A DNA stretch of 64,000 bases from Escherichia coli. Lineage in GTDB: Bacteria > Pseudomonadota > Gammaproteobacteria > Enterobacterales > Enterobacteriaceae. Numbering within the stretch: position 1 is the first letter of the stretch; each line of letters opens with the position of its first letter. Shown here piece by piece: positions 27,703-43,497 of the stretch. The notes under the pieces are model-generated. The model made no database searches. It was not told the DNA's origin and was given only the letters and a program-made list of their open reading frames with translations. The stretch is taken from the NCBI RefSeq assembly GCF_003790525.1, contig NZ_CP033635.1. One strand, written 5' to 3'. Position numbers and translations under genes: made by a program.

Positions 27703-28031
27703 CAGTTCACCACCTGTTCAAACTCTGCGCTGAACTCAACACGCAGCATACTGACCCGCGACGACCATTTTGCGCAGGTCACCTTTATCTGCCGCCACTC
27801 ATAAGGCGGCGTCCACAGAAAGGCCTTCCAGCCCCCGTGCTCAGCCAGAAACGACTCCAGCGCCGTGGCCTCCTCACGGGAGACAGACAGCGTCACGCTG
27901 TACGTTTTCAGGTCGGCATTCAGACCGGCAGGCGCTCGCTGGGAATAGCCATCACCAAAGCGCACTTTCCTGACGGAAGGGGCCGAAGCCACATCCATAC
28001 CGGGTTTCACTTTCCAGCGGAAGGTCTTCAT
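27702..28031 (-). CDS. minor tail protein M
   Basis: 109-aa, lambda M-like. Confidence 0.9.
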   Translation of the reverse strand: MKTFRWKVKPGMDVASAPSVRKVRFGDGYSQRAPAGLNADLKTYSVTLSVSREEATALESFLAEHGGWKAFLWTPPYEWRQIKVTCAKWSSRVSMLRVEFSAEFEQVVN

Positions 28032-30589
28032 CGTCCACCTCCGGAGAACAGGCCACCATCACGCATCTGTGTCTGAATTTCATCACGGGCACCCTTGCGG
28101 GCCATGTCATACACCGCCTTCAGAGCAGCCGGACCTATCTGCCCGTTCGTGCCGTCGTTGTTAATCACCACATGGTTATTCTGCTCAAACGTCCCGGACG
28201 CCTGCGACCGGCTGTCTGCCATGCTGCCCGGTGTACCGACATAACCGCCGGTGGCATAGCCGCGCATCAGCCGGTAGAGATTCCCCACGCCAATCCGGCT
28301 GGTTGCCTCCTTCGTGAAGACAAACTCACCACGGTGAACAATCCCCGCTGGCTCATATTTGCCGCCGGTTCCTGTGAATCCTCCGGTTGAAAAATGGAAT
28401 TTCGCCGCAGCGGCCTGAATGGCTGTACCGCCTGACACTGATGCGCCACCACCGGCAGCACCGCCAATGGCGCTGCCGATACTCCCGACAATCCCCACCA
28501 TTGCCTGCTTAAGCAGAATTTCTGTCATCATGGACAGCACGGAACGGGTGAAGCTGCGCCAGTTCTGCTCACTGCCGGTCAGCATCGCCGCCATATTCTG
28601 TGCAATTCCATCAAAGGTCTGCGTGGCTGCACTTTTAACCTGCGACATACTGTCCGTGGCGCTCTCTTCCCACTCACTCCAGCCGGACTTCAGGCCAGCC
28701 ATCCAGCTCCCGCGAAGCAGGTCTTCAGCCGCCCAGGTCTTTTTCTGCTCTGACATGACGTTATTCAGCGCCAGCGGATTATCGCCATACTGTTCCTTCA
28801 GACGCTGTTCTGTGGCTTCCCGCGCTGCCTGCCGGTCAGTCAGCCCCCGGTTTTTCGCATCAATGGCGGCCCGTTTTGCCCGTTGCTGCTGTGCGAATTT
28901 CTCCGCCTGCTGCGCCAGCGCGTTCAGGCGCTCCTGATACGTAACCTTGTCGCCAAGTGCAGCCAGCTGGCGTTTGTACTCCAGCGTCTCATCTTTATGC
29001 GCCAGCAGGGATTTCTCCTGTGCAGACAGCTGGCGACGTTGTGCCGCCTCCTCCAGTACCGCGAACTGACTCTCCGCCTTCCACAAATCCCGGCGCTGCT
29101 GGCTGATTTTCTCATTCGCTCCGGCATGCTTCTCCAGCATCCGGAGTTCTGCCTGAAGCGTCAGCAGGGCCGCATGAGCACTGTCTTCCTGACGATCGCC
29201 CGCAGACACCTTCACGCCGGACTGTTTCGGCTTTTTCAGCGTCGCTTCATAATCCTTTTTCGCCGCCGCCATCAGCGTGTTGTAATCTGCCTGCAGGATT
29301 TTCCCGTCTTTCAGTGCCTTGTTCAGTTCTTCCTGACGGGCGGTATATTTCTCCAGCGGCGTCTGCAGCCGTTCGTAAGCCTTCTGCGCCTCTTCGGTAT
29401 ATTTCAGCCGTGACGCTTCGGTATCGCTCTGCTGCTGCGCATTTTTGTCCTGTTGACTCTGCTGCTCAGCCTTCTTTCGGGCGGCCTCAAGCGCAAGACG
29501 GGCCTTTTCACGATCATCCCAGTAACGCGCCCGCGCTTCATCGTTAACAAAATAATCATCCTTGCGCAGATTCCAGATGTCGTCCGCTTTCTTAAACGCA
29601 GCCTCTGCCTTAATCAGCATCTCCTGAGCGGTATCAGGACGACCAATATCCAGCACCGCATCCCACATGGATTTGAATGCCCGCGCTGTCCTGTCTGCCC
29701 AGGTCTCCAGCGTGCCCATGTTCTCTTTCAGGCGGCGGGTCTGGTCATCAAACCCTTTCGTTGCGGCCTCGTTCGCCGCCTGCAATGCCCCTGCCTCATC
29801 GCCGGAACGCTGCAACTGAGCAACATACGCAATCTGCTCCGCCGTCACGTTATGGAACTGACGTGCCATCGCTGTCAGTCCCGACGTCGGGTCTGTGGTC
29901 AGCTTCCCGAAGGCTTCAGCGACCTTGTCCACCTCCACGCCGGATGCAGAGGAGAAACGCGCCACACTCTGGCTGATGGACGCAATCTGAGCCTCACCGC
30001 TTACCCCCGCCTTAACCAGTGCACTGAGTGACTCGCTGGTCTGGTTAAACGTCAGCCCTGCCGCCTGCCCGGCTCTGGACAGGACCAGCATACGATCTGC
30101 CGTCAGTCCCGCCTGATTGCCGGAAAGGACCAGCGTTTTGTTGAAATCGGACAGGGTTGAGTTGCCCTGATACCAGGCATACGCCAGCGCACCGGTTGCC
30201 ACCGCCAGCGAGGTGGCCCCGACCATCGGCAGGGTGATCGCACCGGCAAGCCCCCTGAACATGGGGATCATCCCGCCGAAGGAGTCCTTCACCTGACCAC
30301 CCTGTTGCAGCAGGATCAGCCACGGGTTCTGCCCGCCTGCAAGCTGCGTGGCCACGTCAGTGAACTGTGCAGGCAGCATACGCATGGCGGCTTTATACTG
30401 CCCGACGGAAATCCCCGCTTTCTGTGCAGCCAGCGCCTGTCGGCTCAGCGACTGTTCAACGACTGCCGCTGTTTTTTTCGCATCACTTTCCGTACCGGAA
30501 AAATGACGCCTGACTCTGGCCATCTGCTCGTCAAATCTGGCCGCATCCAGACTTAAATCAACGACCAGATCGCCTACCGGTTCAGCCAT
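28028..30589 (-). CDS. tail tape measure protein H
   Basis: 853-aa, coiled-coil rich, same length as lambda H. Confidence 0.9.
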   Translation of the reverse strand: MAEPVGDLVVDLSLDAARFDEQMARVRRHFSGTESDAKKTAAVVEQSLSRQALAAQKAGISVGQYKAAMRMLPAQFTDVATQLAGGQNPWLILLQQGGQVKDSFGGMIPMFRGLAGAITLPMVGATSLAVATGALAYAWYQGNSTLSDFNKTLVLSGNQAGLTADRMLVLSRAGQAAGLTFNQTSESLSALVKAGVSGEAQIASISQSVARFSSASGVEVDKVAEAFGKLTTDPTSGLTAMARQFHNVTAEQIAYVAQLQRSGDEAGALQAANEAATKGFDDQTRRLKENMGTLETWADRTARAFKSMWDAVLDIGRPDTAQEMLIKAEAAFKKADDIWNLRKDDYFVNDEARARYWDDREKARLALEAARKKAEQQSQQDKNAQQQSDTEASRLKYTEEAQKAYERLQTPLEKYTARQEELNKALKDGKILQADYNTLMAAAKKDYEATLKKPKQSGVKVSAGDRQEDSAHAALLTLQAELRMLEKHAGANEKISQQRRDLWKAESQFAVLEEAAQRRQLSAQEKSLLAHKDETLEYKRQLAALGDKVTYQERLNALAQQAEKFAQQQRAKRAAIDAKNRGLTDRQAAREATEQRLKEQYGDNPLALNNVMSEQKKTWAAEDLLRGSWMAGLKSGWSEWEESATDSMSQVKSAATQTFDGIAQNMAAMLTGSEQNWRSFTRSVLSMMTEILLKQAMVGIVGSIGSAIGGAAGGGASVSGGTAIQAAAAKFHFSTGGFTGTGGKYEPAGIVHRGEFVFTKEATSRIGVGNLYRLMRGYATGGYVGTPGSMADSRSQASGTFEQNNHVVINNDGTNGQIGPAALKAVYDMARKGARDEIQTQMRDGGLFSGGGR

Positions 30590-31016
30590 ACCGGACTCCT
30601 CCTGCGATCCCTTCTGATACTGTCATCAGCATTACGTCATCCTCCGTCATGTCCGCCACATCCGGGGATGCAGGGATAACTTCATTCCCGTCCGGGCCAA
30701 AGCGGACGCCTCCGGCAAGCCCTGCCGCTTTCTGCATCAGCACATCATCTTCAGGCTCTTCGTCAGCCTCGCGCCGGTTCAGCAGACTGAAATCCAGCGG
30801 ATGCATATCCGGATCGCTGAAAAACAGGCTGAGCACGGTGTACGTCAGCCCGGAAAAGTGCATATCCAGCAGAACATCATGAAAATAATGGGTACTGTAA
30901 AAGCGGTGCCAGTCGGCATACTCCGTGGATGACATCCCGGCAAGCATGGCACGCCAGTCGGGTCGCCCCATCTCACGCGCCAGTTTCAGGGCAAAACTCA
31001 GCTCACCGTCGAACAC
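30582..31016 (-). CDS. T reading frame of the G-T tail assembly chaperone, expressed by -1 frameshift from G
   Basis: ORF in the -1 frame relative to G, beginning immediately 3' of the slippery heptamer; lambda GT-like. Confidence 0.75.
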   Translation of the reverse strand: MFDGELSFALKLAREMGRPDWRAMLAGMSSTEYADWHRFYSTHYFHDVLLDMHFSGLTYTVLSLFFSDPDMHPLDFSLLNRREADEEPEDDVLMQKAAGLAGGVRFGPDGNEVIPASPDVADMTEDDVMLMTVSEGIAGGVRYG

Positions 31017-31420
31017 TTTCCCGCAGAAACAGGCTCTGCAGGCCCGGCGTCCTCTGTCTGTTCAGGGGTATTATTCACAACAAACTCATACATACCGGAC
31101 AGCCGGTACACCACGTTTTCAGCATGAGAAATTGCCTCCGTGGGCCAGGTGGTAAGCACTTCCTGCTCAATCTGTTTAACGGCTTCATTCATGGAAGGCT
31201 GCTTTGTCTTCTGCGGATGGTTATGCCACAGGGACATCGCCACCACAAAAGCGCCGGTTTTGATAAGGTCTGCCAAAGCAACCTGTCGGTTGCTGTCGGA
31301 GTCCGCCTGTTCTGCCTGTTGTTTCATCAGAAAAAGATGCTCAATACGCTGCAGGGCTGACAGTTCAGAAAGCGTGACGGTCACGCCGTTATGTTCAAAT
31401 GATTCGGTTTTCAGGAACAT
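30998..31420 (-). CDS. tail assembly chaperone G
   Basis: 140-aa MFLKTESFEHNGVTVTLSELSALQRIEHL..., lambda G-like. Confidence 0.9.
   Translation of the reverse strand: MFLKTESFEHNGVTVTLSELSALQRIEHLFLMKQQAEQADSDSNRQVALADLIKTGAFVVAMSLWHNHPQKTKQPSMNEAVKQIEQEVLTTWPTEAISHAENVVYRLSGMYEFVVNNTPEQTEDAGPAEPVSAGKCSTVS
31016..31022 (-). promoter_or_regulatory. programmed -1 ribosomal frameshift slippery heptamer GGGAAAG (G to G-T)
   Basis: Minus strand reads GCG GGA AAG TGT in the G frame, identical to the lambda G-T slip site, 6 codons before the G stop. Confidence 0.7.
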
Positions 31421-31435
31421 CGCTGACTCTCCGGA

Positions 31436-32176
31436 TTAACTGGCGGTGACGTTGATTTCTGCAACCGCAGCAAGTTCACCATTACCGGATACGACCGGAA
31501 TGTTGACCCTGCCTGCAGCAACGCCCTTCACGGTGATGGTCATACCACTGACCGACACGGTGGCTTTTGTTTTATCCGCAGACACCGCACGGAAGCTCTT
31601 GTCAGTTGCGCCTTCCGGCTGGAATGCCACGGTCAGCGTGGTGCTCTGCCCTTTCACCACCGAGGTGCTGGCAGGCGTCACGGTCATGCCGGTTGCCGCT
31701 GTTAGCGTGCTGCGATCTTCTGCCATCGACGGACGTCCCACGTTGGTGACTTTCACCGTGCGGGTGATCACTTCCTTCGCTGTCACCGCCTTACCGATGC
31801 TGCTGACCCAGCCGCGGAACACATCGACCGTGCCGTTCGGGAAGCGGATTTTATAGGCACGGGTATCACCTTCATTAAACCACGCCAGCAGCGCCTGCTG
31901 CCCCTGCTCTCCGGGCATCCACGCCAGCGTGAAGCTGGTATCTCCGGCGGATTTCTGCCCCTGTCCGGTCGCGGCCCAGTCCGAATCTTCATCATCGAGA
32001 TAACTGTCGTCATAGGGCTCAGCGGTCAGTTCGCCGGGCGTCAGGTCTTTAACTTTAGCCAGACGCGACCAGTCATTGTCTGAAAGCGGGTTCGCATAAG
32101 GGTCACCGTTCCCCTTATAAACCCACAGGGTGGTCCCGGCCCCTTTCACCGGTGCCAGAGGATTTGGTGTTGGCAT
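31436..32176 (-). CDS. major tail protein V (with C-terminal Ig-like domain)
   Basis: [22 protein letters not shown]... lambda V-like; start taken at 32176 rather than track start 32206. Confidence 0.9.
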
Positions 32177-32183
32177 ATCGTCC

Positions 32184-32579
32184 TCACATTTCATAGGTAA
32201 TGACATAAGTCAGATCGGCTGAACTCCACAGGCCCGCATCATCGTCGCGCCGGTAGTCATAGCCACTGGCCACCATACTGGTGATCAAATCTGACAGTGC
32301 CGGGATATCGCTCATCACCGGATAAATCCGGGACTCCATCCACGAATCCAGCTCTGAATCCGGCACCTGAGCAGGCAGGAAAACTTCAATATGCAGCTCC
32401 GCCTGCCAGGTATCGCTGTCCAGCTCTTCGCCCGTGTATTCAGCGCCGGTGAGATAAACGGCAACTGCCGGAAAATCCGCCTCATCAAAAACAGCGGGGC
32501 GACCATCAAAAAGCGTCGCCCCGGTGTCATGTTTTTCCAGTGCATCCAGTACGGCTGTACGGAGTTCAGTATTTTTCAT
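32184..32579 (-). CDS. tail terminator protein U
   Basis: 131-aa, lambda U-like. Confidence 0.9.
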
Positions 32580-41697: not shown

Positions 41698-42057
41698 ACA
41701 TCCCGGTTTCTTCCACCATCGCACCGGAAAAGCGACTATGAGGGTAACCCTGCGTCTGTCAGCACAGTAAAACCCGGTGTGCATCGTTTTTGATTATTCC
41801 CGCACACTCGCGCAGAGGAGTTCCCCGTCGGGCTACGGTCATGGTTAATGCGGGAATACGGCGACGATGCAGCGCAGCTAAAAGGGTAATGGACGGATAG
41901 ACCGGTTTATTTCATTCTACAGGATTCTGAGTGTCCCCAACTCCCTCCAATCGTCTGAGCGCCACCTGTGTAGTTTTAATTTTCATCAATCCATTTAACT
42001 ATCGTTTAATTGTTGTCACATAGGATTCTGCCGTTTTTAACAATGCAGGATAATAAG

Positions 42058-42351
42058 ATGAAAAAAATGTTGTTTTCTGCCGCTCTGGCAATGCTTATTA
42101 CAGGATGTGCTCAACAGACGTTTACTGTTGGAAACAAACCTACAGCCGTAACACCAAAGGAAACCATCACCCATCATTTCTTCGTTTCGGGAATTGGGCA
42201 GAAGAAAACTGTCGATGCAGCAAAAATTTGTGGTGGTGCAGAAAATGTGGTTAAAACAGAAACCCAGCAAACATTCGTAAATGGATTGCTCGGTTTCATC
42301 ACTTTTGGCATTTATACTCCGCTGGAAGCGCGGGTGTATTGCTCAAAATAA
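42058..42351 (+). CDS. bor: Bor lipoprotein (serum resistance)
   Basis: MKKMLFSAALAMLITGCAQQT... lipobox; lambda Bor-like; preceded by AGGA. Confidence 0.85.
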   Translation: MKKMLFSAALAMLITGCAQQTFTVGNKPTAVTPKETITHHFFVSGIGQKKTVDAAKICGGAENVVKTETQQTFVNGLLGFITFGIYTPLEARVYCSK

Positions 42352-42382: not shown

Positions 42383-42859
42383 CTATCTGCACTGCTCATT
42401 AATATACTTCTGGGTTCCTTCCAGTTGCTTCTGCATCGTCATCAACCGTTCTCTGAGGGTGAAATAATCCCGTTCAGCGGTGTCTGCCAGTCGGGGGCTG
42501 GTTGCATTATCCACGCCGGAGGCGGTGGTGGCTTCACGCACTGACTGACAGACTGCTTTGATGTGCAACCGACGACGACCTGCGGCAACATCATCACGCA
42601 GAACATCATTTTCAGCTTTCGCATCAGCTAACTCCTTCGTGTATTTTGCATCGAGCGCAGCAACATCACGCTGACGCTGCTGCATGTCAGCGATGGTGGC
42701 GATCGCCTGCTTCAGCTCACTGACTTTTTTATCGCGCTGCTCTTTGTAAGTGATGGCGTTATCGCGGTAATGATTGACCGCCCACGACAGGCAGACGATG
42801 ATGCAGATAACCAGAGCATAAATAATCGCGGCGACTCTGCTCACTGATCTATTCCCCAA
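42383..42859 (-). CDS. i-spanin Rz
   Basis: 158-aa, N-terminal TM plus coiled coil, lambda Rz-like. Confidence 0.85.
42442..42624 (-). CDS. o-spanin Rz1, embedded in Rz in the +1 frame
   Basis: 60-aa lipoprotein [23 protein letters not shown] with proline-rich PPPPPAW. Confidence 0.75.
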
Positions 42860-43374
42860 CAGGCTAATGCGCTTTCCTGGTCACGACGAATAACCTGTCC
42901 GTAGCAGTTATTTGAACGTGTGCGGCAATCACGCCCACCGTCCTTAATCCACCAGCGAATCGACTCACAGGCACCTTTACGATCACCGGCATTAAGCCGC
43001 TTATAAAACGTCGACGGGAAACACTTACCGGGGCCAATGTTATAGGGACAGAATGACGCTATACCCGCTTTCTGTGGTTCGGTCAGTGGTACTTTAATAT
43101 TGCGCTCCACCCATGCCAGCGCCTTATCACGCTCAATGGCATTAACCTGAGCGCATTTTTCCTTCGACAGCTTCATTCCCGGTATGACGGGCTTACCATC
43201 CACCATTGTGGCACCACGACAGATGGTCCATATACCGGAACCATCGCGGTATGCCGTTGTGTGGTTACCTTCTTTTTCATCCAGAAACTGGTCGAGAATA
43301 TCAGGCGCAGGCGCACCGACGGCAATCAGTGCCAGAACGGCAGCCGACAGGCCGTATCTGATTTTTGCGTTCAT
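42841..43374 (-). CDS. SAR endolysin (phage lysozyme)
   Basis: 177-aa; N-terminal hydrophobic SAR-like segment; E...D...T catalytic spacing ([22 protein letters not shown]). Confidence 0.85.
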
Positions 43375-43497
43375 GTATATTTATCAGGATCTAAAGGTTT
43401 ATAACCCTGGATATATCAGGTATATAATCCAGTACCAGCATGTCTCATAAACATACCCGTTCAGGAAAACCAAACGACAACAGATGAGGCTTCAGAA

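Follow-up and report, generated by a model that had tools for sequence, protein, structure and literature searches.

The window analysed here, a 64,000-nt stretch of an Escherichia coli genome (contig NZ_CP033635.1 of assembly GCF_003790525.1), contains a lambdoid prophage together with the chromosome on either side of it. The flanks are E. coli chromosome, positions 1-6000 being 100% identical to strain SMS-3-5 and others. The prophage itself, 44.9 kb in length, lies in yecE at about 15976-60828, a site that is uninterrupted in E. coli SMS-3-5, and it is bounded by an 11-bp direct repeat, TTAACTG(C/T)GTG, at 15965-15975 and 60829-60839. The integrase/excisionase end is ~95% identical to the matching end of the Stx2e phage phiP27. 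Despite a likeness to the Stx2e phage phi467, no stx genes were found in the prophage.

In addition to the features collected in Table 1, the prophage carries a CI-like repressor, a helicase and a full lambda/21-like head-tail module. The lysis cassette, which appears to be complete, and its surroundings comprise open reading frames at 42010-42351 on the plus strand and at 42383-42859, 42442-42624, 42841-43374 and 44032-44304 on the minus strand. In the late-operon leader, a complete IS5 element separates Q from the tRNA and lysis genes and could affect late-gene expression.

Table 1. Features of the yecE prophage and of its G-T region, in positions of the window
Feature	Position	Strand	Basis and remarks
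Sigma-70 region-4 helix-turn-helix protein, small	16869-17324	minus	near left prophage end
538-aa coiled-coil protein (Eib-like trimeric autotransporter)	17386-19002	minus	YadA-like membrane anchor; near left prophage end
Gene H, tape measure protein, 853 aa	28028..30589	minus	PF06791 and PF09718; directly downstream of T
T segment, -1 frame, 144 codons plus stop (30582-30584)	30582..31016	minus	PF06223
Putative mRNA structure 3' of the slip site	30938..31008	minus	folding prediction
Gene G, tail assembly chaperone, 140 aa, 15.5 kDa	30998..31420	minus	PF06894, E = 1.3e-57
Zone with G frame and -1 (T) frame both open, 64 nt	30998..31061	minus	heptamer inside
Slippery heptamer GGGAAAG, phase G GGA AAG	31022..31016	minus	Gly134-Lys135 of G
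Gene V, major tail tube protein	31436..32206	minus	PF16461, E = 4.3e-69, plus Big_2; directly upstream of G
Lysis cassette, apparently complete (holin, endolysin, Rz with embedded Rz1)	within 42383-44304	minus	Bor-like lipoprotein on opposite strand
tRNA-Arg(UCU) and adjacent CAU-anticodon tRNA (Met, or lysidine-type Ile)	44720-44873	minus	
IS5, complete	45328-46523		326-aa DDE transposase; 16-bp terminal inverted repeats
OmpC/NmpC-type porin, 368 aa, cargo	46672-47778	plus	Porin_1, E = 8.8e-126; opposite to late genes
Q antiterminator gene	47957-48379	minus	
Tyrosine integrase, P27-like, 437 aa	59497-60810	plus	Arm-DNA-bind_2 plus Phage_integrase; adjoins attR

Within the tail module, the minus-strand genes V, G, T and H follow one another in that order over 32206..28028, so that G and T lie between the genes for the tail tube and the tape measure. 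The assignments of G and T agree with the corresponding NCBIfam families, G scoring 203.7 bits against the equivalog TIGR01674 (cutoff 74.45) and T scoring 189.1 bits against TIGR01715 (cutoff 77.35); sequence search found no solved structure for either. The mechanically called V frame has 256 aa, compared with 741 nt (246 codons) in lambda V, and no Shine-Dalgarno sequence precedes its start (-2.2 kcal/mol). V probably begins at the ATG of MPTPNPL near 32176, 10 codons further in. The ATG of H overlaps the end of T (ATGGCTGA, 30582-30589 on the minus strand) and is served by a strong Shine-Dalgarno sequence inside T (AGGAGGAG, -10.3 kcal/mol at 7-nt spacing), exactly as in lambda. Because most ribosomes would stop at the end of G, ~410 nt upstream, initiation at H is expected to be largely independent of the translation of T.

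The end of gene G, read 5' to 3' on the minus strand, is ...CCT GTT TCT GCG GGA AAG TGT TCG ACG GTG AGC TGA. The heptamer within it begins at index 398 of the gene in phase 2 and is the sole copy of GGGAAAG in G. Its AAG is followed by five sense codons and then by the G stop, TGA at 31000..30998; the first-pass annotation had placed the heptamer six codons before the stop, which holds when the stop is counted as the sixth codon and is one too many for the sense codons between them. The -1 frame is closed upstream as far as 31061 and is open from there to the TGA at 30584..30582, giving 144 codons between the heptamer and the T stop. The continuation of the -1 frame from the slip site into the T frame at 30582-31016, as that annotation had described it, was thus borne out, and its coordinates and description of the site are correct. 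The T frame of the ORF list opens at a GTG whose first base also ends the heptamer. This triplet is the first NTG past the last -1-frame stop, hence its appearance as the start of T in the list. Joining the two frames at the heptamer gives a predicted G-T fusion, complement(join(30582..31016,31016..31420)), of 279 aa and 31.1 kDa, in which base 31016 would be read twice and the junction would run ...AEPVSAGK/VFDGELSF..., the slash marking the change of frame.

The whole arrangement is nearly that of phage lambda. Over 891 bp, the G-T region is 96.2% identical to positions 9681-10571 of lambda J02459, and a stretch of ~330 nt around the heptamer is an exact match in the pairwise alignment. The heptamer has the same bases at the same place, and the earlier statement that the lambda site G GGA AAG is kept exactly is therefore accurate. 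T is identical to lambda T at 144 of 144 amino acids, so that none of the three nucleotide differences changes a residue. G and its lambda counterpart agree at 90% of amino acids, the 14 differences being grouped in codons ~25-75 (31150-31350 in the window, minus strand), a clustering that suggests a recombinational mosaic within the gene. The lambda genes (G at 9711-10133 and T at 10115-10549 of J02459) and those described here have in common the heptamer, its codon position, its distance of five codons from the stop, the GT junction and the flanking V and H genes; the two differ in the apparently mosaic patch of G and in the nature of the element, which, unlike lambda itself, is a prophage in yecE with a P27-like integrase.

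By number of copies, the heptamer is unremarkable. GGGAAAG occurs 10 times on the two strands of the window, compared with 7.78 +/- 2.9 copies expected from dinucleotide shuffles (28 of 100 shuffles reached 10), and since the bare motif is not enriched, its significance rests on phase, position and conservation. Phase and position set it apart clearly. The 109 mechanically called ORFs of 100 aa or more in the window (25,817 codons) hold 85 in-phase heptamers of the form XXXYYYZ, only five of which are followed by at least 100 open codons in the -1 frame. In four of those five, the supposed zero frame is a spurious ORF lying over a real gene and its stop is 56-61 codons away. Of the 85, the G-T site alone combines a place beside the stop of a real zero-frame gene with a -1 extension of 100 codons or more.

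Conservation was followed in ten diverged phages from an annotated phage collection and in 173 loci added by three IMG/VR scans. All ten phages have an in-phase motif ending in A AAG, situated 2-5 codons before the G stop and followed by 107-146 codons in the -1 frame. The motif reads GGGAAAG in PhiR12_1 and Stx2a_2499, AAAAAAG in Stx1_1649, CP-1639 and Stx2_95, and GGAAAAG in N15, HK225, phi80, PhiR55_1 and Fels-1. Complete G homologues number 182, falling into four clades with 27-100% protein identity, and in 181 of them an in-phase N NNA AAG precedes the stop by 2-5 codons and is accompanied by a long -1 ORF (GGAAAAG in 95, GGGAAAG in 81, AAAAAAG in three, and GGCAAAG and AGAAAAG in one each). 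GGGAAAG stands at the same codon in 77 of 78 complete lambda-type G genes, the exception being a truncated G of 124 aa.

The same constraint is seen at finer scale. In an alignment of nine G proteins that are 27-90% identical, Lys135 is invariant and the rest of the C-terminus is variable. Among 63 distinct lambda-type G-T sequences, nucleotide diversity, ~0.20 immediately upstream, is down to 0.025 in the 30-nt stretch that holds the heptamer, the minimum of the entire G-T region, and a run of 13 nt that includes the heptamer (TCTGCGGGAAAGT) does not vary at all. Of 5426 complete E. coli genomes, 3701 have a match to the G-T region. Two of the IMG/VR loci appear to be decayed: IMGVR_UViG_2695420576_000005 encodes a 124-aa G without a slip site, and IMGVR_UViG_2874956758_000002 has an internal deletion early in T.

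The site is almost certainly a programmed -1 ribosomal frameshift of the lambda type, belonging to the tail assembly chaperone genes G and T of a lambdoid prophage in E. coli yecE. The programmed shift that yields gpG and gpGT of lambda was described by Levin, Hendrix and Casjens in 1993, as cited in later papers (PMC5009743, PMC3296357), and the statements on lambda made here draw on three sources (PMC3296357, PMC5009743, PMC7618472); lambda is not mentioned in Sharma 2014 (PMC4066793). The slippery sequence of lambda G/GT is GGGAAAG, at which the zero frame is held ~96% of the time (PMC3296357), and G_GGA_AAG is highly shift-prone in E. coli (PMC5009743). Because the site and ~330 nt around it are identical to those of lambda, the same mechanism and a similar rate, ~4%, would be expected in this prophage, and by the same analogy its products would act as chaperones. 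The first-pass interpretation was supported: the slip site is real, and the phenomenon is one already known.

By this mechanism, most ribosomes would read GGA AAG, translate five further codons and terminate, producing gpG of 140 aa. A few percent would slip back by one base with tRNA-Gly and tRNA-Lys on GGA AAG, the two tRNAs re-pairing on GGG AAA. The sole tRNA-Lys of E. coli (anticodon mnm5s2UUU) pairs weakly with AAG. The codon entered after the slip would be GTG (Val), from which translation would proceed through T to yield the 279-aa gpGT. In lambda, the G:GT ratio is ~30:1 and critical, the G parts binding the tape measure protein and the T domain binding the tube protein (PMC5009743); both proteins serve as assembly chaperones and do not form part of the mature virion (PMC5009743, PMC3296357). 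By homology, the G part of gpG and gpGT would coat the tape measure protein H, while the T part of the rarer gpGT would recruit the tube protein V; a fixed ratio, again of about 30:1, would then allow correct polymerisation of the tail, with neither protein left in the virion.

These properties bear on how the fusion might be detected. As gpG and gpGT are absent from virions, mass spectrometry of virions, which the first-pass annotation had proposed, would give a false negative, and a lysate of induced cells is the right sample. Trypsin cleaves exactly at the junction lysine, so that the Glu-C peptide PVSAGKVFDGE would be more diagnostic.

A fusion protein could also arise if RNA polymerase, instead of the ribosome, slipped in the A run of the motif to produce an mRNA lacking one A. 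The motif does contain an A run, which in the one clade with AAAAAAG amounts to six A's, but the lambda-type site has just three. Three A's are too few for efficient transcriptional slippage. Across the clades, moreover, it is the in-phase A AAG context that is conserved and not the length of the run. The single tRNA-Lys(UUU) of the host reads both AAG and AAA, and loss of the thiolation of its U34 leads to more shifting and less phage (PMC3296357), a dependence that belongs to translation. Slippage by the polymerase is accordingly considered hardly credible as the source of the fusion.

Another rival reading makes T a gene in its own right, translated from the GTG at 31016. Such an arrangement is what many annotations depict: GenBank and RefSeq records of lambda itself (J02459, NC_001416) have a stand-alone T coding sequence of 144 aa starting at the GTG in place of a slippage join, as does the PGAP-annotated E. 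coli TUM1886 (NZ_CP128970). The GTG, however, lacks a Shine-Dalgarno sequence that could serve it: its strongest duplex with the anti-Shine-Dalgarno sequence is -4.3 kcal/mol at a spacing of 1 nt, whereas the values for G, H, Z and D lie between -6.3 and -10.7 kcal/mol at spacings of 3-8 nt. In the 20 nt before it (GAGCCTGTTTCTGCGGGAAA), pairing with the 16S anti-Shine-Dalgarno sequence is possible only through the GGGA of the heptamer, and a duplex as good is found at 35% of arbitrary NTG triplets in the module. Nor is the triplet conserved; it overlaps the heptamer, and other clades retaining the slip motif have GTC, GCC, GCA or GTT at its position. The T sequence has furthermore been described only within gpGT (PMC5009743, PMC3296357).

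Independent initiation at T is thus neither signalled nor conserved, and a separate T gene is regarded as highly improbable. From the missing Shine-Dalgarno sequence and the unconserved GTG it follows that T is expected only as part of the 279-aa G-T fusion, as the first-pass annotation had anticipated in treating the listed T start as an artefact of the ORF caller. The practical use of the finding lies in annotation: T should be entered as a ribosomal-slippage join with G, giving the 279-aa GT product. The stand-alone T persists in lambda's own records and in PGAP output for thousands of E. coli genomes.

As a slip site, the heptamer adds nothing new, being essentially the lambda form of the founding tail-chaperone frameshift. 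Homologous G and T genes at the same position are present in N15 (gene 14/gene 15), HK225, phi80 and Fels-1, where the motif also ends in A AAG at the aligned codon; the N15 record labels this homologous heptamer as a slippery sequence. In the N15 group the heptamer is G GAA AAG, which does not have the canonical X XXY YYZ form, and G is just 27-49% identical. For the Fels-1 and PhiR55_1 type, the distance from motif to G stop is two codons. More widely, a conserved tail-assembly-chaperone frameshift in long-tailed dsDNA phages was reported by Xu, Hendrix and Duda in 2004, as cited in PMC5009743 and PMC10274946. These phages, too, have two overlapping ORFs between the major tail and tape measure genes, and a low-efficiency shift fixes the ratio of the short to the extended chaperone. 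In other long-tailed phages the proteins often have no sequence relation and the shift may be -1, -2 or +1, whereas the site described here is of the founding lambda type.

The same host mechanism operates in E. coli dnaX (tau/gamma), in which tRNA-Lys(UUU) slips from AAG to AAA on the tandem heptamer A AAA AAG. In dnaX, an upstream Shine-Dalgarno-like element and a downstream stem-loop raise the efficiency to ~50%, and the shift truncates the protein. The G-T shift, in contrast, occurs at a few percent and extends the protein, and it is reported to lack stimulators (PMC5009743). A stimulator of the upstream dnaX type was ruled out for the prophage site, since no Shine-Dalgarno-like element is present ~10 nt upstream of the heptamer, where anti-Shine-Dalgarno pairing is again limited to the GGGA of the heptamer. 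No tRNA-Lys that might alter slippage was found in the prophage, whose tRNAs are the tRNA-Arg(UCU) and the CAU-anticodon tRNA.

Downstream of the heptamer, a structure was predicted in the mRNA. Its outer stem of 8 bp (31008..31001 paired with 30945..30938) would begin 7 nt past the heptamer and enclose two hairpins. For the 93 nt downstream of the heptamer, the minimum free energy structure equals the centroid at -38.7 kcal/mol (z = -2.25), a stability equalled or exceeded in 7% of arbitrary 93-nt windows of the late operon; when upstream sequence was included (121 nt), z was -1.17. Folded separately, PhiR12_1 (z = -3.4), Stx1_1649 (-2.3), N15 (-3.6) and phi80 (-3.6) were predicted to form a similar structure, as was, more weakly, one further locus (L152, z = -1.35); the fold was not predicted for the Fels-1/PhiR55_1 clade.

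Comparative data on this fold are suggestive. RNAalifold finds the outer stem unaided, and the 674-column alignment of 74 G-T sequences has no other stretch with a consensus structure. Pairing in the outer stem reaches 96% in a set of 53 distinct sequences and 100% in all 44 of those outside the Fels-1 clade, though columns 15, 16, 18 and 84 vary. The varying pairs are 16-84 (AU in 25, GC in 19, CG in three, broken in six), 18-82 and 21-79. The covariation score is 0.157, compared with 0.068 for shuffled sequences and 0.018-0.075 for slid partners, and ~2-3 compensatory events at the level of clades lie behind it. The stem region also encodes the most conserved part of T, and the low synonymous variation of the paired codons (CTG, GCG, GCC and CGY) is equally expected from E. 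coli codon preference. Because the covariation and synonymous-site signals are confounded by protein conservation and codon bias, the structure is not established, and the proposal that ~70 nt 3' of the slip site (31008..30938) form a conserved mRNA structure tuning the G:GT ratio is put forward as a speculative and rather unlikely one. If it were true, it would contradict the present view of the lambda G-T shift as one without stimulatory signals.

Whether the frameshift site is put to use depends on the state of the prophage. An intact site could be idle, a relic never translated, if the prophage were defective, the IS5 upstream of the late genes being one possible cause. With a complete IS5 between Q and the lysis and structural genes, late transcription is not guaranteed, and the two apparently decayed IMG/VR loci demonstrate that relatives with a truncated G or a deleted part of T do exist. 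Q-modified transcription, on the other hand, would normally be expected to pass through inserted DNA. Every head and tail ORF from Nu1 through J is full length, as are the integrase, the repressor, Q and the lysis cassette, and the element retains its flanking 11-bp att duplication. The restriction of the T differences from lambda to synonymous positions, together with the maintenance of the G frame, is consistent with recent purifying selection, and nothing in the sequence suggests decay of the tail module. An idle site is therefore considered distinctly unlikely, and with its slip site intact and its head, tail and lysis genes of full length, the yecE prophage may still be capable of building tails.
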